A stretch of 64,000 nucleotides of DNA from a virus, in IMG/VR virus record IMGVR_UViG_3300008117_000079; one strand, 5' to 3'. Each line of letters begins with the position of its first letter. Within the stretch, counting starts at the first letter, position 1. The translations under genes and the position numbers were made by a program. The notes beneath the pieces are model-generated. The model made no database searches. It saw only the letters and a program-made list of their open reading frames with translations, and was not told the origin of the DNA. Positions 42,811 to 55,719 of this stretch are shown here, piece by piece.

Positions 42811-43201
42811 GGGGATGTATTGGATTTGACAGGCGTTGGTTGAATAAAAGGAGCATGTCGGGACTGAATTAATCTCGTTAAAAACTGATTCACTTTTTAA
42901 ATGGCAATGTGCTAAACAAAATGGAAGCTGTTGGGTTAATCCGCACTTCTGAGGTTGCTGTAGCGTAATCGCAACAAAAACCGGGGGCCGGCAGACATAT
43001 AGCCTAGCAACAGAAGTCGTAGTTTTATAGAGCAACCTGGTCGGCTCTCTAAATCCGGATTAGAAACCATTGGTTGTTGATTTACGATGGAAAAGAACAA
43101 ATCAACTATTTTGGGGTATTAGAAAATACCAACCTAAGCATGTAGTGGTCTTTTAAACAAGACGAGCTGGACCGGGGAGTCGGAGCCCCGCATCTCCACC
43201 A
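42811..43201 (+). ncRNA. ssrA: tmRNA (SsrA-like transfer-messenger RNA), CCA encoded
   Basis: 5' end GGGGATGTATTGGATTTGACAGGCG parallels the canonical tmRNA 5' end GGGGCTGATTCTGGATTCGACGGG. 3' end ...CGGGGAGTCGGAGCCCCGCATCTCCACCA gives a T-arm plus 7-bp acceptor pairing with the 5' GGGGATG and an encoded CCA. An internal ORF AAT GTG ... GTT GCT GTA GCG TAA (NVLNKMEAVGLIRTSEVAVA*) has its stop inside a hairpin (GTTGC TGTAGCGTAATC GCAAC), as helix 5 does in tmRNAs. ~390 nt length typical. Confidence 0.6.
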
Positions 43202-43235: not shown

Positions 43236-44316
43236 TGTCTTAAAATTATATATTATTGCTGTACGATTTCTATATTTTTGTGTAAACAAAAAAAGGGATC
43301 AGTTTCCTGTCCCTACTAATTTTTTTTGTCTTATAAGATTAAACCTAAAAAGAACGTTGAGATTACACGTTTTATTGAGAACCTTTAGAGTCATTATTTA
43401 TTCTACTCCTATCCACTTCCTTTTGAGAAGTATTTCTCAGTGACGGTCACTTAGGGGAACCACTCCTTGAGATTTGGACTACTCTCACCTTACTTGACTC
43501 TTTCCGAGGATGCCTCCCCAGTTCGTCCTTGCGGGACTAAAGGTTTTTCGGATAATTACACTTAGACTTGGGATCCTTGTGTGCAATGAACGGCTCATTA
43601 CTATGTAGTCACCTTTCATCCAAACCTGACGGACACTTTTCCTTTCTGATTAAATTAATTTCATAATTTTTTCTTAGGTTTTTGTGTCGTGGATTATGAA
43701 AGTAGTGGTCCGCCACCAGAGCCAGCTCATCTTTTGAACGAGCCGATACTCAACTACTCTCTGAAATGTCCCCATCTCAATATTTTAAGATTACTTCGTG
43801 ACTTATGCCTTGGTAGGCAAGGGTCAAGGATAATGTCAGCACCACCTGTTTGTTATCATACCTTTCGGTTTTAAGTATCCTCTGATATTGGGACACGCAA
43901 TAATAAAATTGGATAATCTTATTTTTTGCAATATCCCTACGAGTTATTCCTATTGGTGTTCCCACCTCAACCGGACGACCCACATCGCCCAATCATCTAA
44001 CCACTTTCCCTACAGCGTTGCCCTCGGTACTAAAGGTTAAACGGTATCCCGCTTGTATACTTAAGTTCGGTTACCCAAACCGCAGATCAGTTACACTACT
44101 GACCCACTTTATCCTGGTTTCCCAGTTTATTTATTGACTATATACGGCCAAATATCTTTATCAGTTTGTTACTCAGAATCAACCGCAAGGATTTCATCAT
44201 CAAACATTCTGAATGGATATTCTAATTTTTCAAAGAACGATTTCGGACGTTTCCGAATTTGTTTTACAAAGTTACGACACTTTTTTCAGTTTGTCAAGTA
44301 CTTTATGAACTTTTTT

Positions 44317-48436: not shown

Positions 48437-48532
48437 TTAATATTTTTTCATTTTTTATTTATTACATATAGGAAAATAAAAAACAACCACACAATATTTC
48501 TATTAATGTGGTTGTTTGCATCTTAAGCGGTG

Positions 48533-48606
48533 TGGACCTTGTAGGGTTTGAACCTACGACTCCTTGATTATGAGTCAAGCACTCTGACCAACTGAGTTAA
48601 AGGTCC
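48533..48606 (-). tRNA. tRNA-Met (anticodon CAT)
   Basis: Cloverleaf GGACCTT-TA-ACTC/AGTTGGTC/AGAGT-G-CTTGA/CTCATAA/TCAAG-GAGTC-GTAGG/TTCAAAC/CCTAC-AAGGTCC-A; all stems pair; CCA not encoded. Confidence 0.75.
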
Positions 48607-48709
48607 GGTTGAGGATGAGAAGTCCTCTGTGTTGTGATTCATACTAGGTTAAATCCAAATCAAGACCATATCCCACCGTAATTCCTTTCTCAAGGGAATA
48701 ACACAACAG

Positions 48710-48789
48710 TACTCCGAGAGGGATTTGAACCCTCACCCCGTAGGAATGCGGCTTAAACGCATCGTGTATACCAATTTCACCATCGGAGC
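48710..48789 (-). tRNA. tRNA-Leu (anticodon TAA)
   Basis: GCTCCGA acceptor pairs with TCGGAGT; anticodon arm ATGCG/TTTAAGC/CGCAT; 11-nt variable region; T-arm GAGGG/TTCAAAT/CCCTC. Confidence 0.6.
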
Positions 48790-48969
48790 ATATTTTAGAA
48801 AATATTTCTTCAGCATTCTACTCCCAGCCCCGAGGAATCGTATCTTACTTAGCCCGTCTCACCGCTGTATGGGTACTGAAGTTAATATTTTCTTTTTTTT
48901 CTACCTATTAAAAGTATAAACAAAACAAATGATACAAACAATAACATATTCATCTTTTAATTGTATTTG

Positions 48970-49069
48970 TAGACAAGAAAGGATTTGAACCTATACGACA
49001 ACTTTTACATTGTCTCGGTACAATCTTAGTTAGATCTACCTTAGCGTCTGCCGATTTCGCCACTTGCCT
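48970..49069 (-). tRNA. tRNA-like gene, ~100 nt, type II-like D-arm, anticodon arm not resolvable
   Basis: Acceptor AGGCAAG/CTTGTCT, D-arm TGGCGAAATCGGCAGACGC, T-arm ATAGG/TTCAAAT/CCTTT. The internal 48 nt (TAAGGTAGATCTAACTAAGATTGTACC + hairpin GACAA-TGTAAAAG-TTGTC) do not fold into a canonical 5-bp/7-nt anticodon arm. Confidence 0.35.
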
Positions 49070-49331
49070 TTGTTAACACCCTAATTTATTCAGCTTACAG
49101 GTGCTCCGGTTGTCCCCACCAAAAAGGTAGGTTAGAAATAGTTTCTTTCGTCCTCAACCCAGGTCGGGCAAACTTTCAGTCCACCTCTGTTGAGATGTGC
49201 GTTTCCACTGTATCTAATACAACTTACTTTCCCAGTCGTTCTCCCTATACGACAATGTACGTTCCCCTACGGATATCACTCCGTTTCTCATTATGTGGGG
49301 CACACTAGGGGGTGATGAACCCTACCACGTG

Positions 49332-49435
49332 TAGTCAGGACAGGATTTGAACCTATAAGAGACCCATTGTTAACCCTCATTTAATGTCTCAACCCCAGGG
49401 TGTTGAGGTGCGTCTACCAATTCCGCCACCTGACT
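49332..49435 (-). tRNA. tRNA-like gene, ~104 nt, type II-like D-arm, 6-bp stem with 8-nt loop (ACCCTGGG) at anticodon position
   Basis: Acceptor AGTCAGG/CCTGACT, D-arm TGGCGGAATTGGTAGACGC (Leu/Ser/Tyr-like), T-arm ATAGG/TTCAAAT/CCTGT. The middle has CTCAAC-ACCCTGGG-GTTGAG followed by a long hairpin GAGAC...(22 nt)...GTCTC. Paralogous in layout to 48970..49069. Confidence 0.35.
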
Positions 49436-49581
49436 ATTTTTTACTGTTCACGTAGAACACACAATCTTTTTTTCGTTTGCTCTTAAAGACTATCTCTTTA
49501 TCTTCCTTAACTTGCCACCATATTCCTATCCAAGCATGACATTTCTTTTCTATTGTATAATTCATAACTTTTAATTTTTTG

Positions 49582-49655
49582 TAGTCCCGACAGGATTCAA
49601 ACCTGTGACCTTCGCCTTAGAAGGGCGTTGCTCTATTCAGCTGAGCTACGGGACC
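49582..49655 (-). tRNA. tRNA-Arg (anticodon TCT)
   Basis: GGTCCCG-TA-GCTC/AGCTGAATA/GAGC-A-ACGCC/CTTCTAA/GGCGA-AGGTC-ACAGG/TTTGAAT/CCTGT-CGGGACT-A; only mismatch A27:A43. Confidence 0.7.
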
Positions 49656-49665
49656 ATATTTTTTG

Positions 49666-49740
49666 TATTCCGTATGGGATTTGAACCCATGATCTCTTCC
49701 GTGAAAGGGAAGTGTCCTAAACCAGCTAGACGAACGGAAC
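49666..49740 (-). tRNA. tRNA-Glu (anticodon TTC)
   Basis: GTTCCGT acceptor; anticodon arm CTTCC/CTTTCAC/GGAAG perfect; T-arm ATGGG/TTCAAAT/CCCAT. Confidence 0.75.
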
Positions 49741-50200
49741 ATAAAACCACATTACAAAACCATAAAGGTACAACTCCTGCGGTCGCGTTGTTCATTACAA
49801 TATTTTAAATCACTTTCGCCCCCTGTATAGACATGCGTCAGATGCTTAAGGTCAGCCTTAACTATTAAGGGAGCCACCCGTGATTTAGATTTTTAAAAAA
49901 TGGTAAGACCTTAAGATTTACTTATTCGTGGGTTACCCCATCCTTACTACCCACACCTCGCCTTTAACATCCGTTCTACCCAAACCATCGTTTATTACCA
50001 GTTAACCTCCCGGAAAACTTTGAGTACCTCCTCAACACGTTAGTCTGATAGGGGCTCCGTTTTACTCATCATTTCTGATTCTCTATGAGAGTCTGCTGAC
50101 GTAGGTCTATCTGCTATCTTACCAATCTATTATTTCAAAGAACTTCTTTCCTTATTTGTTTTACAAAGATAAGGAGAATTTTTCAATCCTCCAAATCTTT

Positions 50201-51103
50201 TTATTTAATATTCAAAAACGTTCCAGAACTGCCTGCCATTGTTGTTGGAAGTTTACCATCCCAAGCATTTGCCTTCAAATACTCAATATACATCGGTGTT
50301 AGTTTTTGTTGTTTCAACTCAATTGCAAGTGATGCCGCTTTTGCGTTGATAATTGTTTCTGCCGAGTCGGCTCTTGCGACAGCCACCTTACGTTTTCCTT
50401 CTGCAATTGCAGCAATTGCTTGTTGCTCGGAGGCTTCAGCTTGTTGGATAGCTTTTGTTTTTGCAATAATTGATTCCTGGAGCGCCTCCGGTGGTGTAAT
50501 GTTTGTTCTAAGTTGTGACACATCAAACCACTTTGTTAATCGTTTATTACACTCAACAACAATTGCCGCTTCAAACTGTTGACGATTAGAAAAAATACTA
50601 TCAACTTCCCATTTATTTGCTTCATCATTAACCGCCCCAACAATTGCGTTTTTAAGCCACCCTTGTTCAATTTCTTTAACACCCAATCGTAGGTTTTCAA
50701 ACATATCACCAATTGCTTCCGGTTTCAACGAGTAGTTAAACGATGGTTTAATAGTTGCTGAGAACCCACCCTTTGTAATTACAACCTGATCATCATACTC
50801 AATATGTTGTTGAAAGGTTGGGAACTCAAGAACTTGCGTGAACCAGGTGTTATAAACAACCCACCCAGTTTTGTACTGATATGAAGCAACCCCTCTTTCA
50901 GATCCGGACAAGTTAACCACAATACCTTTGTGACCGGCGTCAATTCTCTCAAGTGAGTATGGTTGGAATACGCCAATCAATACACCCACAACACCAACAA
51001 CAACTCCTTTTAGAATACTTGAGGACTCATCGTTAATTTTACCTTTTACAATCATCACCCCTGCGATAATCAAAAACACTAATGTTACAATCAAACTAAT
51101 CAT
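50201..51103 (-). CDS. SPFH/band-7 (prohibitin/HflC-like) domain membrane protein
   Basis: N-terminal TM helix (ISLIVTLVFLIIAGVMIV), then an SPFH-type domain and a C-terminal Ala/Glu/Gln-rich coiled coil (AIQQAEASEQQAIAAIAEGKRKVAVARADSAE...) typical of band-7 proteins. GC content noticeably above the phage average. Confidence 0.7.
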   Translation of the reverse strand: MISLIVTLVFLIIAGVMIVKGKINDESSSILKGVVVGVVGVLIGVFQPYSLERIDAGHKGIVVNLSGSERGVASYQYKTGWVVYNTWFTQVLEFPTFQQHIEYDDQVVITKGGFSATIKPSFNYSLKPEAIGDMFENLRLGVKEIEQGWLKNAIVGAVNDEANKWEVDSIFSNRQQFEAAIVVECNKRLTKWFDVSQLRTNITPPEALQESIIAKTKAIQQAEASEQQAIAAIAEGKRKVAVARADSAETIINAKAASLAIELKQQKLTPMYIEYLKANAWDGKLPTTMAGSSGTFLNIK

Positions 51104-51317
51104 TTTCTTTTTCTTTTTTGTTAAATAAATTTGTTATTTCTTTTACTATTAGCTTTATTTGAAAAACGGTGTAGAATAAAGCTATAAAACTAGCACCGAT
51201 TTGTAGGATTTCATCAACCTCCCGGTTGATTACATAACTGAAAAATAAATTCATTATGTAGATGTAAATCATTGTGGTACCTACAACACCCCACAACCCC
51301 AGTTTAAACTTTAACAT
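51096..51317 (-). CDS. small membrane protein upstream of SPFH gene (possible partner protein)
   Basis: The ORF-track ORF 51096..51473 runs through tRNA-Asp. The plausible CDS starts at the internal Met MLKFKLGLWGVVGTTMIYIYIMNLFFSYVINREVDEILQIGASFIALFYTVFQIKLIV... (two hydrophobic helices) and overlaps the SPFH gene start by 8 nt. Confidence 0.3.
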   Translation of the reverse strand: MLKFKLGLWGVVGTTMIYIYIMNLFFSYVINREVDEILQIGASFIALFYTVFQIKLIVKEITNLFNKKEKEND

Positions 51318-51346
51318 TTCATTTTGTTTAGTTTTTAATTGTTTAG

Positions 51347-51418
51347 CGGTCCATCCGGGAATTGAACCCGGAGCACATCCGTGACAGGGATGTATGTTAG
51401 CCACTACACCAATGGACC
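51347..51418 (-). tRNA. tRNA-Asp (anticodon GTC)
   Basis: GGTCCAT acceptor; anticodon arm CATCC/CTGTCAC/GGATG (loop identical to bacterial tRNA-Asp); T-arm CCGGG/TTCAATT/CCCGG. Confidence 0.75.
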
Positions 51419-51927
51419 ATTTTAAGGGTGAACACGGGCCTAGCGTGCCGTCTTTTAGGAAAGGCCCTCCCACCTATCCACCCTTTTTGTTGTAGCAACG
51501 CCTTGGAATCGCACCAAGTTAAACCGGCTTATGAGACCGGTGAGATCCTCTACCTCCCGCCTGCTATATCTGTGATACAGTAGTTGACAACCACACTCGT
51601 TTCACCATCTTTTGTCAACAGGTCTATGAACTTAACGAGTTCACCTTTTCTTACCACCACAATATTTTAAAAAGTTGTGATTTATATGTATCAGCATCAT
51701 TACTCCATTATTAAATGCTTCACGGCGGATTAGACCGTGCTAGTCGGAGCAAGCTAGTTCAACACATACTACCTAAAGTTTTCCCCCTCGCTTTAGTGTA
51801 ATAAATCACAATGTTTTCAAAGAACTTTTTTCCCTTTATCTGGGGGTAGGATACCAATTTCTAAACTTCCTACCCCCATCGTTTGTCTTACAAAGATATG
51901 TCAAATTTTTTAATCTACCAAATCTTT

Positions 51928-52221
51928 TTAATGTAATCTTATAAGATATCTCATAATTTTTTCAATATCTTCTTTTGTTTGGTATCCCAAAACATCATTT
52001 GTTAAAATTGTATCATAACAAAGTTCCCAGTTGTTTTCATCACCTTTTAGGATTGCAACTTCCCACTCATCTTCGTTACTTGTATAAGACATATATCTAT
52101 CACCAAAAGGAGATTTAAATCTAACACAAGAAATTCCATATCCTCCCGGAAAGAAAATAGTACCCTGAAGACCAACACCCATGCTATGGGGTTTAAACTT
52201 TATATCACTAAATTTTACCAT
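51928..52221 (-). CDS. hypothetical protein
   Basis: 97-aa ORF inside the tRNA/RNA island. Confidence 0.35.
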   Translation of the reverse strand: MVKFSDIKFKPHSMGVGLQGTIFFPGGYGISCVRFKSPFGDRYMSYTSNEDEWEVAILKGDENNWELCYDTILTNDVLGYQTKEDIEKIMRYLIRLH

Positions 52222-52633
52222 ACAACAAAGGTATATTTAATTTTTTATATTTCCAATATGTCAAAGAACAAAAAACCCATCTTTTTTGAAGATGGGTTTC
52301 TAATATTTTATGTATTAATTTATCACACCATCTTCACATAGATAGAATCCTCAGCTTCTGCTAACCCTCTCAAAGATATGATATGTAAATTTTTCATTTG
52401 CAGTTTTATTATTTTTGTTATAAATATATAATACTTTTAAAAAGTGTAAATATTAAACAAAAAATTGTTTTTTATGTTTAATCTTTCGTGTGTAAGTATT
52501 TTTTGACTCCTCAACCCGGGAAACAAATCTACCGTCAAAGAATCCGGCTTTTACCTGGTCTTCCCTGATCTGAGTTCTTTTCATCTTATGTTGGTCATAC
52601 GTTTTCATAATCGTTTATTTTTTTAAAGTTTTG

Positions 52634-52707
52634 TACCCCTAGCAGGACTTGAACCTGCAAAATTCAGATCCTAAATCTGACGCGTATACCTATTCCGCCA
52701 TAGGGGC
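52634..52707 (-). tRNA. tRNA with anticodon TAG in a class I (short variable arm) body
   Basis: GCCCCTA-TG-GCGG/AATAGGTATA/CGC-G-TCAGA/TTTAGGA/TCTGA-ATTTT-GCAGG/TTCAAGT/CCTGC-TAGGGGT-A. UAG anticodon would read Leu CUA/CUG but lacks the long variable arm of Leu tRNAs. Confidence 0.5.
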
Positions 52708-52716
52708 ATTTTGTTG

Positions 52717-52789
52717 AGAGAGGTGAGGGACTTGAACCCCCGTACTGTGGGTTGCAACCACAGACCTAACGCCGCTCGGACAACCTCTC
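52717..52789 (-). tRNA. tRNA-Cys (anticodon GCA)
   Basis: GAGAGGT acceptor with U73 discriminator (Cys identity element); anticodon arm CTGTGG/TTGCAAC/CCACAG; T-arm GGGGG/TTCAAGT/CCCTC; weak D-stem. Confidence 0.55.
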
Positions 52790-52793
52790 ATAA

Positions 52794-53249
52794 TTAGCGG
52801 CAGTGGTGGTCTGCCGCCCTTGTTGCAATTTGGTTGTGGGGTTTAATGTTTGTCTTGTACCCCAGTGAAGTCGCCCAACCAACAGCCGGTTGGACTAATT
52901 TTGAGCTGAAGTGTTTTAAGTCGCTGTTGTAATCTAAATCTATTTCCACCTTTACATTCACTTTTGTGGTTAACCACTCTGCAACCTCAATTGAATAATC
53001 GGCCTCATTCCATAATCTGGTCCATTTATCTTTAATCTTTTTTGTCTTTTGTTTGTGATAGATATAATGAACCCCCCTATTCCCAAATCTATAAGCAATT
53101 GCTGTAACATATATAGTGCTTCTTCTATGATTCTGAGAGTCAGTACCAATGTGTACCTCAACCCAGGGACATTCCTTTAATATATCAACAGTATGTTTTA
53201 CAATGTCAGGAACAGATTCTCCGGTTACTTTTCTGAATACTCTGTTCAT
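52794..53249 (-). CDS. YkuK/DUF458-like RNase H-fold protein
   Basis: 151 aa with the HIGTDSQ motif characteristic of the YkuK family of RNase H-like proteins; located between tRNA genes. Confidence 0.45.
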   Translation of the reverse strand: MNRVFRKVTGESVPDIVKHTVDILKECPWVEVHIGTDSQNHRRSTIYVTAIAYRFGNRGVHYIYHKQKTKKIKDKWTRLWNEADYSIEVAEWLTTKVNVKVEIDLDYNSDLKHFSSKLVQPAVGWATSLGYKTNIKPHNQIATRAADHHCR

Positions 53250-53272
53250 AATTTCCTTAATTTATTTGTTTG

Positions 53273-53348
53273 TGGAACCATAGGGAGTTGAACCCCAACC
53301 TTTGGATTTTCAGTCCAACGTGACACACCACACTTACACCATAGTTCC
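53273..53348 (-). tRNA. tRNA-Phe-like (anticodon GAA), atypical D-arm
   Basis: Acceptor GGAACTA/TGGTTCC, anticodon arm TTGGA/CTGAAAA/TCCAA, T-arm TGGGG/TTCAACT/CCCTA are canonical. The D region (GTGTAAGTGTGGTGTGTCAC, 20 nt) is over-long and poorly paired. Confidence 0.5.
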
Positions 53349-53350
53349 TT

Positions 53351-53848
53351 TTATTTAATTTCAAATGCACAACGCATCGGTCTTTTCAATTTTTGAGAAT
53401 CCTCAAAGTTTCCAACAACAACACCATCTTTAATTGTAAAAGCGTGACCTTTAACAAGTACAAAAAAAGTTCCCTTTGGATTTTTCTTAACAAAGGTACC
53501 AACAGTCATTTTTCTTGTAACCACTTCACCTTTAACCTTAACGGGGTAATCCAAAGATCTTAACATATAGTCGTTCTTTCTTTCACCAACAATATGAACT
53601 TTTTTTCCGTTTATCATAACTCTGTTATCGGACATTTTAACAAATTTTAATGGAGTCCCAAATGTCCCTCTTCTTGGTTGTCTATTAAACTCTTCAGCGA
53701 CATACTTGTGTGCATAGTCATATGAAACCTCAAATGAGGACGCAAATGCTCTTACAACACAATCGTTTGTTTCACCTTTTGCAATTTTAGAGTCACTATA
53801 CCCTTTGATTGCCTTTCCTGTTGCTTCGTATGGTAGTCTGTTTTTCAT
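53351..53848 (-). CDS. hypothetical protein with possible Cys/His hydrolase dyad
   Basis: 165 aa; conserved-looking NDCVVRAFA (Cys) and KGHAFTIKDGVVVGN (His) segments suggest a papain-like/permuted thiol hydrolase, but this is speculative. Confidence 0.35.
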   Translation of the reverse strand: MKNRLPYEATGKAIKGYSDSKIAKGETNDCVVRAFASSFEVSYDYAHKYVAEEFNRQPRRGTFGTPLKFVKMSDNRVMINGKKVHIVGERKNDYMLRSLDYPVKVKGEVVTRKMTVGTFVKKNPKGTFFVLVKGHAFTIKDGVVVGNFEDSQKLKRPMRCAFEIK

Positions 53849-53884
53849 ATCTCAAAGATACAAAAAGTTTTTTAACCACCAAAA

Positions 53885-53955
53885 TTATTTTTAGCGCGTG
53901 GTGTAGGAATTGAACCCACCCAGTGAGGTTTTGGAGACCTACCCGACACCTTGTC
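53885..53955 (-). tRNA. tRNA-Trp-like (anticodon CCA), compact D-arm
   Basis: Acceptor GCGTGGT/ACCACGC, loop CTCCAAA with anticodon CCA, T-arm GTGGG/TTCAATT/CCTAC. D-arm reduced (GACA-AGGTG-TGTC); 71 nt. Confidence 0.45.
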
Positions 53956-54160
53956 TGTACCACGCAAATGCCCGACCTAGCTCGGGACCGACATCGGATA
54001 TTTAAATAGTTCTGGTCAACCACTCGCCACCCACCAATCTCTTGTATCAAACTTTTTGTAGTCCAAACGATTCCTTTATTGAACTTAATCATTTTGGTAA
54101 TATCTCCTACGACTCATTCTCAACTCACTTGCCTAAGCCTTGTCCGTTGTGAACTATTTG

Positions 54161-54234
54161 TGTGTATGATGGGTTACGATCCCATTACCTTTGGTTCCAC
54201 AAACCAACGCTCTACCGATTGAGCTACATACACC
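54161..54234 (-). tRNA. tRNA-His (anticodon GTG) with encoded G-1
   Basis: (G)GTGTATG-TA-GCTC/AATCGGTA/GAGC-G-TTGGT/TTGTGGA/ACCAA-AGGTA-ATGGG/ATCGTAA/CCCAT-CATACAC-A; extra 5' G as expected for His; unusual T-loop ATCGTAA. Confidence 0.7.
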
Positions 54235-54389
54235 ATATGTTGAGGAAAGCAGTGGTAACGATCCACAATCGGATTCTCACCGATCGCAATGCTTAGCAGG
54301 CATGCCCCGTCGCCTTCAGGGATTACTTTCCATAGAGCGTAGTAGGACTGCAGTTCCTTGAGGCACCTACGCAAGTTATTCCTCTTTTG

Positions 54390-54462
54390 TGTTCACGACG
54401 GGTTACGATCCCATTACCTCCGACATATCAGATCGGCACTCTACCAATTGAGCTACGTGAAC
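54390..54462 (-). tRNA. tRNA-Ile (anticodon GAT)
   Basis: GTTCACG acceptor; anticodon arm CCGAT/CTGATAT/GTCGG; T-arm ATGGG/ATCGTAA/CCCGT (same atypical T-loop). Confidence 0.7.
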
Positions 54463-54468
54463 TTATTG

Positions 54469-54541
54469 CGGACAAGGAAGGGTACGATCCTACAACCTAT
54501 CGGTTAACAGCCGATTGCTCTACCAATTGAGCTACTTGTCC
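54469..54541 (-). tRNA. tRNA-Asn (anticodon GTT)
   Basis: GGACAAG acceptor; anticodon arm ATCGG/CTGTTAA/CCGAT perfect; T-loop ATCGTAC. Confidence 0.7.
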
Positions 54542-54550
54542 ATTTTGTTG

Positions 54551-54631
54551 TGGGAGAGGAGGGACTTGAACCCCCAAGGCTTTCGCGACAGATTTACAGT
54601 CTGCTGAGCCAACCAATTGCTCAACTCTCCC
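54551..54631 (-). tRNA. tRNA-Tyr (anticodon GTA), long variable arm
   Basis: GGGAGAG acceptor; D-arm GAGC/AATTGGTTG/GCTC; anticodon arm GCAGA/CTGTAAA/TCTGT; variable CGCGAAAGCCTT; T-arm GGGGG/TTCAAGT/CCCTC. Confidence 0.65.
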
Positions 54632-54794
54632 AAGTTTAGGAAATCAGAAGATGGTTCTGTGGACATCTGATTTTACGATTAGCTTTACTATGACAGTTAA
54701 AACTCCCACATAACTACGAACTACTGACACGTTAACGTTATGTACTTCCCTAATCAACCTATTGTACACCCTATAGGACTTGAACCTATGACCT

Positions 54795-54868
54795 GTTGTA
54801 TCGACCGGTTACGATCCGATTCTCCCCATATTAAAAGTATGGTGCTTTCCCGATTAAGCTACGAGGGG
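54795..54868 (-). tRNA. tRNA-Lys-like (anticodon TTT), acceptor stem disrupted; possible pseudo-tRNA
   Basis: D-arm GCTT/AATCGGGA/AAGC, anticodon arm CCATA/CTTTTAA/TATGG and T-arm ATCGG/ATCGTAA/CCGGT are intact, but the 5' strand CCCCTCG pairs only 3 bp with the 3' strand CGATACA. A second orphan T-arm (ATAGG/TTCAAGT/CCTAT) follows at ~54765-54790. Confidence 0.3.
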
Positions 54869-54886
54869 TTTCGTTTGTCATACTTG

Positions 54887-55075
54887 TCACTTTTCATAAG
54901 ACATTAGTTTTTGATTGTTTATTTTTATTTCTGTTTCCACTCTTTTAAGTTCTTCACTTAAATCCCCACGATATGATGGGTCCTTACTAATTTTAACAAG
55001 GCTAATATAGTAATTATTTAAACCACTCAACTTACCTTTGATAGAAATTTTTTCACATTCTTCGTTTGTTATCAT
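54887..55075 (-). CDS. hypothetical small protein
   Basis: 62-aa ORF between tRNA genes; weak. Confidence 0.2.
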   Translation of the reverse strand: MITNEECEKISIKGKLSGLNNYYISLVKISKDPSYRGDLSEELKRVETEIKINNQKLMSYEK

Positions 55076-55092
55076 AACTTATAGTTTTTTAG

Positions 55093-55166
55093 TAGGGTAG
55101 ACAGGACTTGAACCTGCATCTTCCTCGTCCCAAACGAGGCGGCTTAGCCAATTAGCCAACTACCCT
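55093..55166 (-). tRNA. tRNA-Pro (anticodon TGG)
   Basis: AGGGTAG-TT-GGCT/AATTGGCTA/AGCC-G-CCTCG/TTTGGGA/CGAGG-AAGAT-GCAGG/TTCAAGT/CCTGT-CTACCCT-A. Confidence 0.7.
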
Positions 55167-55179
55167 ATGTTTATTATTG

Positions 55180-55253
55180 TTGTCCCGGAAGGGGTTGAAC
55201 CTCCATACTCCTCGTTCAAAGTGAGGTGACTCTGCCAATTCGTCTACAGGACA
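55180..55253 (-). tRNA. tRNA-Gln (anticodon TTG)
   Basis: TGTCCTG acceptor (one G-U); 3-bp D-stem; anticodon arm CCTCA/CTTTGAA/CGAGG (A31:C39 mismatch); T-arm GGAGG/TTCAACC/CCTTC. Confidence 0.6.
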
Positions 55254-55464
55254 TTATAAAAGAGGAGAGATGAGGTGCCGACCCCCATACCTTTCGGTAC
55301 TCACCGTTTTCAAGACGGGATCACAGGCCGCTGTGATTACCTCTCCTTTTAAGGCCGATATGTCAAAGAACATTTTCTTTTTTGAGGTCCCTGTCGGAAC
55401 TGACCCGACAACTCAACTTTACAAGAGTCGTATTTTTCCAGTTAAACTAAGAGACCAATTTAAA

Positions 55465-55497: not shown

Positions 55498-55719
55498 TCA
55501 CTTTTATATTTGATGATACGTTACATTGTACTATTAAATGAAAGACACGGAAATTTATGAAGCGTAATATACGACTTGACCCAGCTCTGACACGGGTTAT
55601 TAAAGTTCATATTTATCTGTGTTGTTTTCATTTCGTTATAAATATATGTGTTTTACAAAAAGTTTAATTTTCTTTTACAAATATAGGTTATTTTTTTTAA
55701 TTGACAAATGTTTTTTTAA

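Follow-up and report, generated by a model that had tools for sequence, protein, structure and literature searches.

A tRNA island in a large T4-like phage carries an exchanged T-loop pair and candidate tRNA-framed RNAs with hypervariable inserts

The 64,000-nucleotide stretch of viral DNA analyzed here (IMG/VR virus record IMGVR_UViG_3300008117_000079; hereafter the window) carries a dense island of tRNA genes on its minus strand. As judged from its sequence, this island is very probably a working tRNA cluster of a large T4-like phage, which would supply 18 structurally sound tRNAs for 16 amino acids, fitted to A/T-ending codons, together with tRNA-Leu-framed RNAs that would not decode. The genome itself is that of a large T4-like phage: a Gp23-type capsid protein, a Gp20-type portal, a prohead protease and a T4-type terminase are encoded in the same window. 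The core finding, a phage tRNA cluster fitted to the codons of the phage and encoding no CCA, is ordinary. The newest content lies in the tRNA-Leu-framed RNAs with hypervariable inserts and in the conserved non-tRNA RNAs that surround them.

Eighteen tRNAs with complete cloverleaves

ARAGORN with default settings called 15 minus-strand tRNA genes (Met, Leu-UAA, Arg-UCU, Glu, Asp, Leu-UAG, Cys, Phe, His, Ile, Asn, Tyr, Pro, Gln and Thr) at 48532-55456, which agrees in strand and coordinates with the island proposed in an initial annotation made from the sequence letters. All 15 scored 42.8-72.3 bits in Infernal against the Rfam tRNA model RF00005 (gathering score 29), with whole-window E-values of 1e-5 to 7e-14. 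Among the outcomes that would speak against the island, the initial annotation had named that tRNAscan-SE would place most of its genes below threshold as pseudogenes; with Infernal and RF00005 as the nearest proxy, these 15 genes lie above 29 bits, and this outcome is not borne out. Relaxed ARAGORN settings added Trp(CCA), Ser(GCU) and Ser(UGA), which, like a second and atypical gene with a CAU anticodon, fall below the RF00005 gathering score. That score was also passed by a Lys/Val chimera (37.6 bits) and by a tRNA-like element that we call scaffold RNA A (38.3 bits). The complete cloverleaf (7-bp acceptor stem, D arm, 5-bp anticodon stem, 7-nt loop with U33 and a purine at position 37, and 5-bp T stem) was found in the ARAGORN structures of the 15 default tRNAs and of Trp, Ser(GCU) and Ser(UGA), and was incomplete in scaffold RNA A, its companion scaffold RNA B and the chimera. 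In all, default settings miscalled or missed three credible tRNAs along with one chimera and two tRNA-like RNAs. No other T-arm-like hairpins were found in the rest of the 64 kb. The initial list of genes proved incomplete: absent from it are Thr, the serine tRNAs Ser(GCU) and Ser(UGA), both scaffold RNAs and the conserved RNAs that are not tRNAs. Of these, Thr(UGU) and Ser(UGA) map immediately beyond its right-hand end. The tRNA genes are as follows.

55385..55456, minus strand, tRNA-Thr(UGU): ARAGORN default, Rfam 49.9 bits; T-loop GTCAGTT (G54:G58)
55262..55346, minus strand, tRNA-Ser(UGA), class II: relaxed ARAGORN only; T-loop GTCGGCA (G54:G58)
55180..55253, minus strand, tRNA-Gln(UUG): default, Rfam 50.5 bits; 3-bp D stem
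55093..55166, minus strand, tRNA-Pro(UGG): default, Rfam 48 bits
54551..54631, minus strand, tRNA-Tyr(GUA), class II: default, Rfam 53.1 bits; without CCA
54469..54541, minus strand, tRNA-Asn(GUU): default, Rfam 66.0 bits; T-loop ATCGTAC (A54:U58)
54390..54462, minus strand, tRNA-Ile(GAU): default, Rfam 56.9 bits; T-loop ATCGTAA (A54:U58)
54242..54331, minus strand, tRNA-Ser(GCU), class II: relaxed ARAGORN; T-loop ATCGTTA (A54:U58)
54161..54233, minus strand, tRNA-His(GUG): default, Rfam 66.1 bits; T-loop ATCGTAA
53894..53965, minus strand, tRNA-Trp(CCA): relaxed ARAGORN; mismatched D stem, canonical T-loop
53273..53348, minus strand, tRNA-Phe(GAA): default, Rfam 56.3 bits; expanded, irregular D arm
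52717..52789, minus strand, tRNA-Cys(GCA): default, Rfam 42.8 bits
52634..52707, minus strand, tRNA-Leu(UAG): default, Rfam 66 bits; 5-nt variable loop, class I-like
51494..51564, minus strand, second CAU tRNA-like gene, atypical: Rfam 19 bits; T-loop TGCGATT (G55), weak acceptor stem
51347..51418, minus strand, tRNA-Asp(GUC): default, Rfam 61 bits
49666..49740, minus strand, tRNA-Glu(UUC): default, Rfam 62.4 bits
49582..49655, minus strand, tRNA-Arg(UCU): default, Rfam 64 bits
48710..48789, minus strand, tRNA-Leu(UAA), class II: default, Rfam 55.5 bits
48533..48606, minus strand, tRNA with a CAU anticodon (Met or Ile2): default, Rfam 72.3 bits

The genes found under relaxed settings are conserved in other viral loci, among them relatives of the island collected as 80 IMG/VR contigs via its SPFH protein (L001-L080; 65-100% identity; contigs of up to 304 kb). 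Ser(GCU) is 84-92% conserved in L029, L033, L107, L152, L173 and L180. Ser(UGA) is 77-96% conserved in at least nine loci, with compensatory changes in the D stem; in these relatives its loop reads ATCGACA or ATCGGCA, and positions 54:58 are A:A or A:G. ARAGORN drew Ser(UGA) with 8 + 4 bp, and an 8/4 allo-tRNA or tRNA-Sec-like fold was considered and set aside, a 7/5 register with U8 fitting too when the sequence is read by eye. Trp is weakly placed in Rfam (31.3 bits to tRNA-Sec); it is conserved in relatives, with compensatory T-stem changes in L122 and L033. The atypical second CAU gene has a 96% identical counterpart in L029; compensatory changes in its anticodon stem were seen in L029 and L084.

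Shortened or mispaired D arms had initially been reported for Phe, Trp, Cys and Gln. This description holds for Phe (3-bp stem, 14-nt loop) and Trp (mismatched stem), whereas Cys and Gln merely have short stems of 2-3 bp, as is usual for these isoacceptors. A further gene, first listed as a UAG-anticodon species, turned out to be an ordinary tRNA-Leu(UAG), a reader of CUN codons. A stop-codon suppressor was considered in its place and rejected, since the UAG anticodon pairs with the Leu codons CUA and CUG; the suppressor anticodons CUA, UUA and UCA were absent from the default and relaxed ARAGORN calls. The 5-nt variable loop of this gene is unusual in a leucine tRNA. The short arm is also present in L004, L033 and L119, and a long variable arm is kept in L029. 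In tRNA-His, a genome-encoded G at position -1 (54234) faces discriminator A73; bacterial tRNA-His usually has C73. In three relatives (L004 3637-3709, L029 4355-4427 and L033 1957-2029), a 73-nt tRNA-Tyr(GUA) was observed without the long variable arm and with an encoded CCA.

3' ends and codon usage

The absence of an encoded CCA, a feature already in the initial annotation, is borne out by the trailers of all 15 default genes: C74 is present in 15 of 15 and is followed by A in 13 and by T in 2. Among 89 unique tRNAs of the clade formed by the 80 relatives, C74 occurs in 95.5%, CAA in 67% and CCA in 3%, the sequence after the discriminator being commonly CAA or CTA. The scaffold RNAs follow the same C74 trailer rule as the tRNAs, and the spacer CAACAAAAT recurs between several neighboring genes. 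We propose that several internal promoters would start transcription of the island, that RNase P would cut the 5' ends of the precursor and that the 3' ends would be trimmed, as in tRNA maturation generally. Because the genes end in N73-C-A/T and not in CCA, the CCA would be completed by a CCA-adding enzyme.

The proposed match between the anticodons and A/T-ending codons is supported on the phage side. Over 15,970 codons from 42 open reading frames (ORFs), the G+C fraction at third codon positions (GC3) is 0.20, and the preferred codons TTA, AGA, GAA, CAA, ACA, CCA, TCA, AAT, GAT, TAT and TTT each have a matching phage tRNA. Under strict wobble rules, the encoded set reads 64% of codons and covers all top A-ending ones; ATA accounts for 32% of Ile codons. 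Missing from the island are tRNAs for Ala and Gly, and those for Lys and Val too once the chimera is counted as dead. The encoded tRNAs would top up the host pool for phage translation.

An exchanged 54:58 pair in the T-loop

As first described, His, Ile and the Lys-like arm of the chimera carry the T-loop ATCGTAA, and Asn carries ATCGTAC. These loops had been taken to remove both T54 and Psi55; alignment in the register G53-A54-U55-C56-G57-U58-A59-A/C60-C61 indicates that T54 is indeed replaced by A54, whereas U55 is retained. The exchange is confined to positions 54 and 58, with both U55 and C56 unchanged, and position 60 is A or C. The pattern U54-U55-C56-R57-A58 was found in 11 of the 18 intact tRNAs, with U55 and C56 present in all. 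A54...U58 occurs in His, Ile, Asn, Ser(GCU) and the Lys remnant, and G54...G58 in Thr and Ser(UGA), which brings the genes with a non-U54:A58 pair to 7 of the 19 in the window when the Lys/Val chimera is counted.

This exchange extends well beyond the island. Across 1,124 unique ARAGORN tRNAs from 197 viral loci, positions 54/58 were T/A in 960, A/T in 136, A/A in 10, G/G in 5 and T/T in 0, counts in which the swapped form is inflated, since the presence of one such loop was the criterion for choosing loci L081-L197. U55 was retained in 132 of the 136 swapped loops, C56 in all 136 and the D-loop GG in 131, while position 60 had changed from mostly T to A or C. In the relatives, which were chosen via a protein and are unbiased for the loop, A54...U58 was present in about 20 of 159 tRNAs, all with A or C at position 60. 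Importantly for function, 12 swapped-loop tRNA-Ile(GAU) sequences from different contigs pair in 99.6% of alignment cells, and 16 of their 21 pairs change on both sides while the loop is invariant; none of 500 shuffles reached this level, and slid controls paired at 34-52%. Such covariation indicates purifying selection on what would be a working tRNA.

The loop pattern was also found in at least 120 stretches of bacterial and archaeal genomes; most of those called by ARAGORN are single tRNA genes, and many encode CCA. It is present in tRNA-Lys(UUU) of Alphaproteobacteria, with one identical sequence at 14 loci, in tRNA-Val(CAC) of Betaproteobacteria, in tRNA-His of Kiritimatiellae, in tRNA-Met, tRNA-Lys and tRNA-Ala of Patescibacteria, and in tRNA-Thr(GGU) of Clostridia. 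On a Reyranella chromosome, the swapped-loop tRNA-Lys adjoins gyrA, an ABC transporter and a cytidylyltransferase-like (coaD-like) gene; the ORFs tested there included no integrase. In a cultured Acinetobacter phage, the loop is ATCGTAG in Leu(UAG) and ATCGAAA in Asp. As the A:U form is shared by chromosomal tRNAs of bacteria, A54:U58 is to be read as a variant within tRNAs and not as a ground for exclusion. The A54:U58 loop is a functional minority variant, neither a sign of decay nor specific to phages.

In structural terms, U55 and C56 would dock onto G18 and G19 of the D-loop; because both remain, the elbow fold and function would be kept in the swapped-loop and G:G tRNAs. The modifications 5-methyluridine 54 (m5U54) and 1-methyladenosine 58 (m1A58) would be unable to form in tRNAs with A54:U58 or G54:G58. 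A different change was observed in tRNAs of four relatives (L004 11151-11222, L029 4046-4117, L033 9995-10067 and L046 5783-5855), where the T-loop AGCGTWA has G55 in place of U55 and the D-loops carry ...AGTA or AGTG in place of GG. This combination points to covariation of the G18:U55 contact, which would be A18:G55 in these relatives.

According to a review of T-loop modification, U54 is universal, with eukaryotic initiators and their A54 as the exception, and the pair U54-A58 is conserved (PMC7912444); full-text searches of the literature library at hand returned nothing on an A54:U58 pair. The variant is real, functional and widespread, yet seemingly little discussed. The exchange offers a natural test of the need for the 54:58 pair and for m5U54 and m1A58, and annotators should not take such T-loops for pseudogene marks.

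tRNA-Leu-framed RNAs with hypervariable inserts

Two elements between tRNA-Arg and tRNA-Leu combine the frame of a tRNA with an unrelated interior.

49332..49435, minus strand, scaffold RNA A: Rfam tRNA 38.3 bits; acceptor AGTCAGG/CCTGACT, A73; 52-nt insert in place of the anticodon and variable arms
48970..49069, minus strand, scaffold RNA B: variant acceptor AGGCAAG/CTTGTCT, A73; 44-nt insert

Each has a perfect 7-bp acceptor stem, a D arm of tRNA-Leu type and a canonical T arm, with two unrelated hairpins where the anticodon and variable arms would be expected. Folded without constraints, scaffold RNA A formed the acceptor stem, the D stem, the T arm and two hairpins. When viral contigs were searched with the 19-nt 5' end, at least 120 loci (L322-L441) were returned, and the matches listed, together with earlier viral loci (L004, L025, L029, L033, L045, L057 and L152), comprise at least 110 distinct elements of 71-163 nt. 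The family core consists of the acceptor AGTCAGG/CCTGACT with A73, a D arm (GGCGGAATTGGTAGACGC) that we take to be that of E. coli tRNA-Leu, and a T arm (ACAGGTTCGAATCCTGT); U8 is kept, and the inserts span 25-115 nt. In 110 elements, every position of the 3' 27 nt except the first is conserved at 80-100%, a conservation owed in part to the filter, and the first 19 nt are identical by construction. The inserts of these 110 elements, by comparison, fall into 92 clusters. An anticodon arm was found in none of the 110, where about 1 is expected by chance and the shuffle maximum is 4.

Acceptor variants in the family covary (AGGCAAG/CTTGTCT, GGTCAGG/CCTGACC, AGGTAAG/TTTACCT and ACACAAG/TTTGTGT), and one insert subfamily shows a compensatory change when the sequences are read by eye; the mean folding z of the inserts is -0.66. 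Phage genomes carry several co-oriented copies in intergenic gaps, half of them away from tRNAs, and none was detected in the cultured phages searched. In the window and in L004/L005, two scaffold RNAs flank a conserved 261-nt spacer. Antisense matches of inserts A and B within the window reach 11-12 nt at the longest, which is the chance level. An intron-containing tRNA was considered for A and B and rejected, as the intron mode of ARAGORN gave inconsistent anticodons and intron positions and the family has no constant anticodon-stem flanks. A literature search for natural tRNA-framed phage RNAs gave only an engineered scaffold and unrelated work.

Based on this architecture, we tentatively place A and B, with slightly less than even credence, in a large family of natural tRNA-scaffold RNAs that is apparently undescribed and belongs to uncultured T4-like phages. 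The frame would recruit RNase P, 3' trimming and CCA addition, possibly also leucyl-tRNA synthetase, and the insert, or the RNA between two elements, would be the working part. Such a frame would define and stabilize the ends of the insert or of neighboring RNAs. If this is true, the scaffold family constitutes a large and diverse set of phage small RNAs.

Loss of tRNA genes by deletion

A further element had been annotated as a Lys-like tRNA gene.

54765..54868, minus strand, Lys/Val chimera: Rfam 37.6 bits over 104 nt

The ATCGTAA arm and the 5' part of a tRNA-Lys(UUU) are present as described; the element is, however, no whole Lys gene but a deletion chimera of Lys and Val. Its first ~70 nt align with the intact tRNA-Lys(UUU) of L004 (5' acceptor strand, D arm, anticodon arm and ATCGTAA T arm), and its last ~33 nt with the 3' part of tRNA-Val(UAC) (variable loop, T arm and 3' acceptor strand), the gene that follows Lys in L029 and L033. 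Evidently, a deletion took out the 3' acceptor strand of Lys together with the 5' two-thirds of Val. An intron was considered for this 104-nt hit and rejected, the Lys/Val fusion explaining it. Four of the seven acceptor pairs are left, as read by eye from the sequence. The chimera is probably a dead pseudogene, which would leave the phage without tRNAs for Lys and Val.

Deletion is also seen within the population. The variant L001 (IMGVR_UViG_3300008261_001363) is 100% identical to the window elsewhere and lacks 51566-51626 and 49372-49586. Loss of the latter segment left a fusion in which tRNA-Arg supplies the 5' part and scaffold RNA A the 3' part, and loss of the former removed half of a conserved ~110-nt element. 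Because this variant carries two further deletions in addition to the event behind the chimera, we conclude that the island is being eroded by deletions.

Alternative explanations

Erosion of this kind raises the question of whether the island is degenerating and its irregular tRNAs, those with swapped T-loops and odd D arms, are pseudogenes in decay. The Lys/Val chimera and the two L001 deletions document loss by deletion, and Trp, Ser(UGA) and the second CAU gene lie under default detection, all of which decay would predict. Yet His, Ile and Asn score 57-66 bits, the swapped-loop Ile keeps every helix through compensatory changes around an invariant loop, the same loop is found in chromosomal bacterial tRNAs, and Trp and Ser(UGA) show compensatory changes across relatives; we regard decay as a very improbable explanation of the irregular genes. 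Another possibility is that the non-standard T-loops are an adaptation by which tRNAs that are still usable escape a host enzyme that reads the T-loop, either a defense nuclease or the U54/A58 methylases. Swapped loops are frequent in the clade, even among relatives chosen irrespective of the loop (about 20 of 159 tRNAs), and a non-U54:A58 pair occurs in 7 of the 19 tRNA genes of the window, the chimera counted; A54 is not methylatable as U54 is, and U58 cannot become m1A58. Phage tRNAs are also known to evade anticodon nucleases through sequence change. Against evasion, chromosomal tRNAs of several bacterial lineages use the same loop, so that no phage-specific pressure is needed, its recurrence could stem from shared ancestry of His, Ile and Asn, and we know of no defense nuclease that reads positions 54 and 58. 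Evasion is, in our judgment, improbable, if less so than decay.

For scaffold RNAs A and B, an explanation other than a processing frame is that they are substrates of leucyl-tRNA synthetase, that is, charged or uncharged mimics of tRNA-Leu that would be unable to decode. The D arm of the scaffold is of tRNA-Leu type and includes G18 and G19, the T-loop is canonical, and A73 and U8 are in place; the invariance of the scaffold in sequence, beyond mere pairing, suggests a partner that reads sequence. In E. coli, leucine identity lies in A73 and the tertiary pairs linking D-loop to T-loop, a set that the frame retains; tRNA-Leu truncated of its long variable arm stays active, and the anticodon arm is dispensable for aminoacylation (PMC9976931). 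However, acceptor variants with compensatory changes exist, and half of the copies lie between protein genes far from tRNAs, a placement that a role in transcript processing would explain equally well. We consider synthetase mimicry unlikely, though still worth entertaining, and favor the assignment of A and B to a family of tRNA-scaffold RNAs.

Several points weigh against the reading of the island as a working cluster with a functional T-loop variant. No CCA-adding enzyme, RNase or other tRNA maturation enzyme was found among the ~40 ORFs of the window, default detectors miss Trp, Ser(UGA) and the second CAU gene, and the host is known by inference alone. The choice of loci L081-L197 inflates the frequencies of the swapped loop, as stated above. 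Furthermore, identity among His, Ile and Asn is 68-71%, where the background is ~55-62%, and their shared loop may go back to a single ancestral gene rather than to repeated selection. In the relative L004, Ile and Lys have D and T arms in common; duplicated genes that later changed their anticodons may account for much of the loop's spread among isotypes. The case for a common origin of His, Ile and Asn is suggestive, not decisive.

Conserved non-tRNA stretches of the island

Several stretches between the genes are conserved without being tRNAs; folding is given as the z score of the minimum free energy (MFE).

51565..51673, minus strand, conserved ~110-nt non-coding element: 94.6% identity to L045-L049, whose SPFH protein is 68% identical
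49891..50171, minus strand, conserved non-coding stretch: 86-87% identity to L029 and L025 (SPFH gene next to it, ~72%); MFE z -0.57
49070..49331, minus strand, conserved 261-nt spacer between the scaffold RNAs: 86% identical in L004/L005; MFE z +0.54
52222-52460 and 54632-54764, minus strand, further conserved intergenic stretches

The stretches 49070-49331, 49891-50171, 52222-52460 and 54632-54764 are 74-88% conserved in relatives, often above the adjacent protein genes. A promoter motif (50164-50195) lies upstream of 49891-50171 and tRNA-Glu downstream of it. The element 51565-51673 may be a pseudoknot, with interleaved helices ACTCGT/ACGAGT and GTTGAC/GTCAAC and one compensatory pair (GTTAAC/GTTAAC); its MFE z is -0.26. 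The conserved spacers gave no Rfam matches down to E = 5, and none of the three that were folded is significantly more stable than shuffled sequence (z +0.54, -0.57 and -0.26).

Genomic context and host

Protein genes, two large RNAs and promoter motifs accompany the island.

55678..55708, minus strand, Bacteroidota-type promoter motif at the upstream edge of the island
52794-53249, minus strand, RNase H-like protein gene (PF04308, E = 1.6e-24), within the island between tRNA-Phe and tRNA-Cys
50201-51103, minus strand, SPFH/Band 7 protein gene with a small membrane-like ORF upstream, within the island
43354-43761, minus strand, full-length GOLLD RNA: Rfam 319 bits; ~5 kb from the island
42811-43201, plus strand, transfer-messenger RNA (tmRNA): Rfam 86.7 bits (gathering score 47); convergent with GOLLD, ~5 kb from the island

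The RNase H-like and SPFH/Band 7 genes keep their positions across relatives. ARAGORN made no tmRNA call at 42811-43201. The window also codes for a ClpB-like ATPase, tail-fiber-like lectin-fold proteins and lysis enzymes. Matches to the promoter motif TTTG-N17-21-TAnnTTTG number 17 in the window (5.25 expected), a count reached in 0 of 100 shuffles, and 4 of the 17 matches to this Bacteroidota-type motif lie inside the island on the minus strand. Together with an SprB-repeat protein encoded in the window, these motifs suggest a Bacteroidota host. The island was not found in cultured phages; its Trp/His segment is shared with a 642-kb uncultured phage record at 81.5% identity. A 549-nt contig in a Rhodoluna sp. 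metagenome-assembled genome (MAG) bin (L268) carries near-identical copies of the window's Ser(GCU), Ile and Asn genes, with Asn at 100% identity. It is almost certain that this contig is a piece of a phage and was wrongly binned with a freshwater actinobacterial MAG.

Comparison with known systems

The T-loop of the eukaryotic initiator tRNA also has A60. Its sequence AUCGAAA differs from the phage loop AUCGUAA at position 58 alone (A54:A58 versus A54:U58), and AUCGAAA itself occurs in the relatives, in His of L029 and L033. A54 in place of U54 is common to the initiator (PMC7912444) and the phage loop; unlike in the eukaryotic initiator, A54:U58 is found here in elongator tRNAs of phages and bacteria. 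At the level of the genome, GOLLD RNA has been reported near tRNAs and in prophages (PMC5737381), and large and huge phages carry tRNA arrays; the window likewise combines a dense array with GOLLD ~5 kb off.

The closest parallel to the island as a whole is the tRNA cluster of T4 with rnaC and rnaD (species 1 and 2). Both are T4-type clusters that also encode non-tRNA RNAs; the T4 RNAs are stable, with rnaC described as a stable RNA whose role is not known (PMC3014915), and those of the island are known as genes alone. The 3' end of T4 rnaC has a canonical T arm (CCGGGTTCGAATCCCGG) followed by an acceptor-like strand, which makes it tRNA-framed like A and B. The match in sequence between rnaC/rnaD and A and B is limited to the universal 11-13 nt core of the T arm, and A and B are analogues, by this comparison, and not demonstrated homologues. 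Unlike T4 rnaC, the RNAs described here have complete acceptor, D and T arms, are near-invariant in these parts and multi-copy, and carry hypervariable inserts. The island also holds 18 tRNAs against 8 in T4, none of them with an encoded CCA.

In architecture, A and B are identical to the engineered tRNA scaffold, in which the acceptor, T and D arms are kept, an insert replaces the anticodon stem-loop, and the kept arms let cellular factors process and protect the RNA (PMC3753655). The engineered scaffold is man-made, whereas A and B are natural, conserved, multi-copy and known from sequence. If A and B do serve as scaffolds, phages would have reached the same design that engineers use to stabilize foreign RNA in bacteria.

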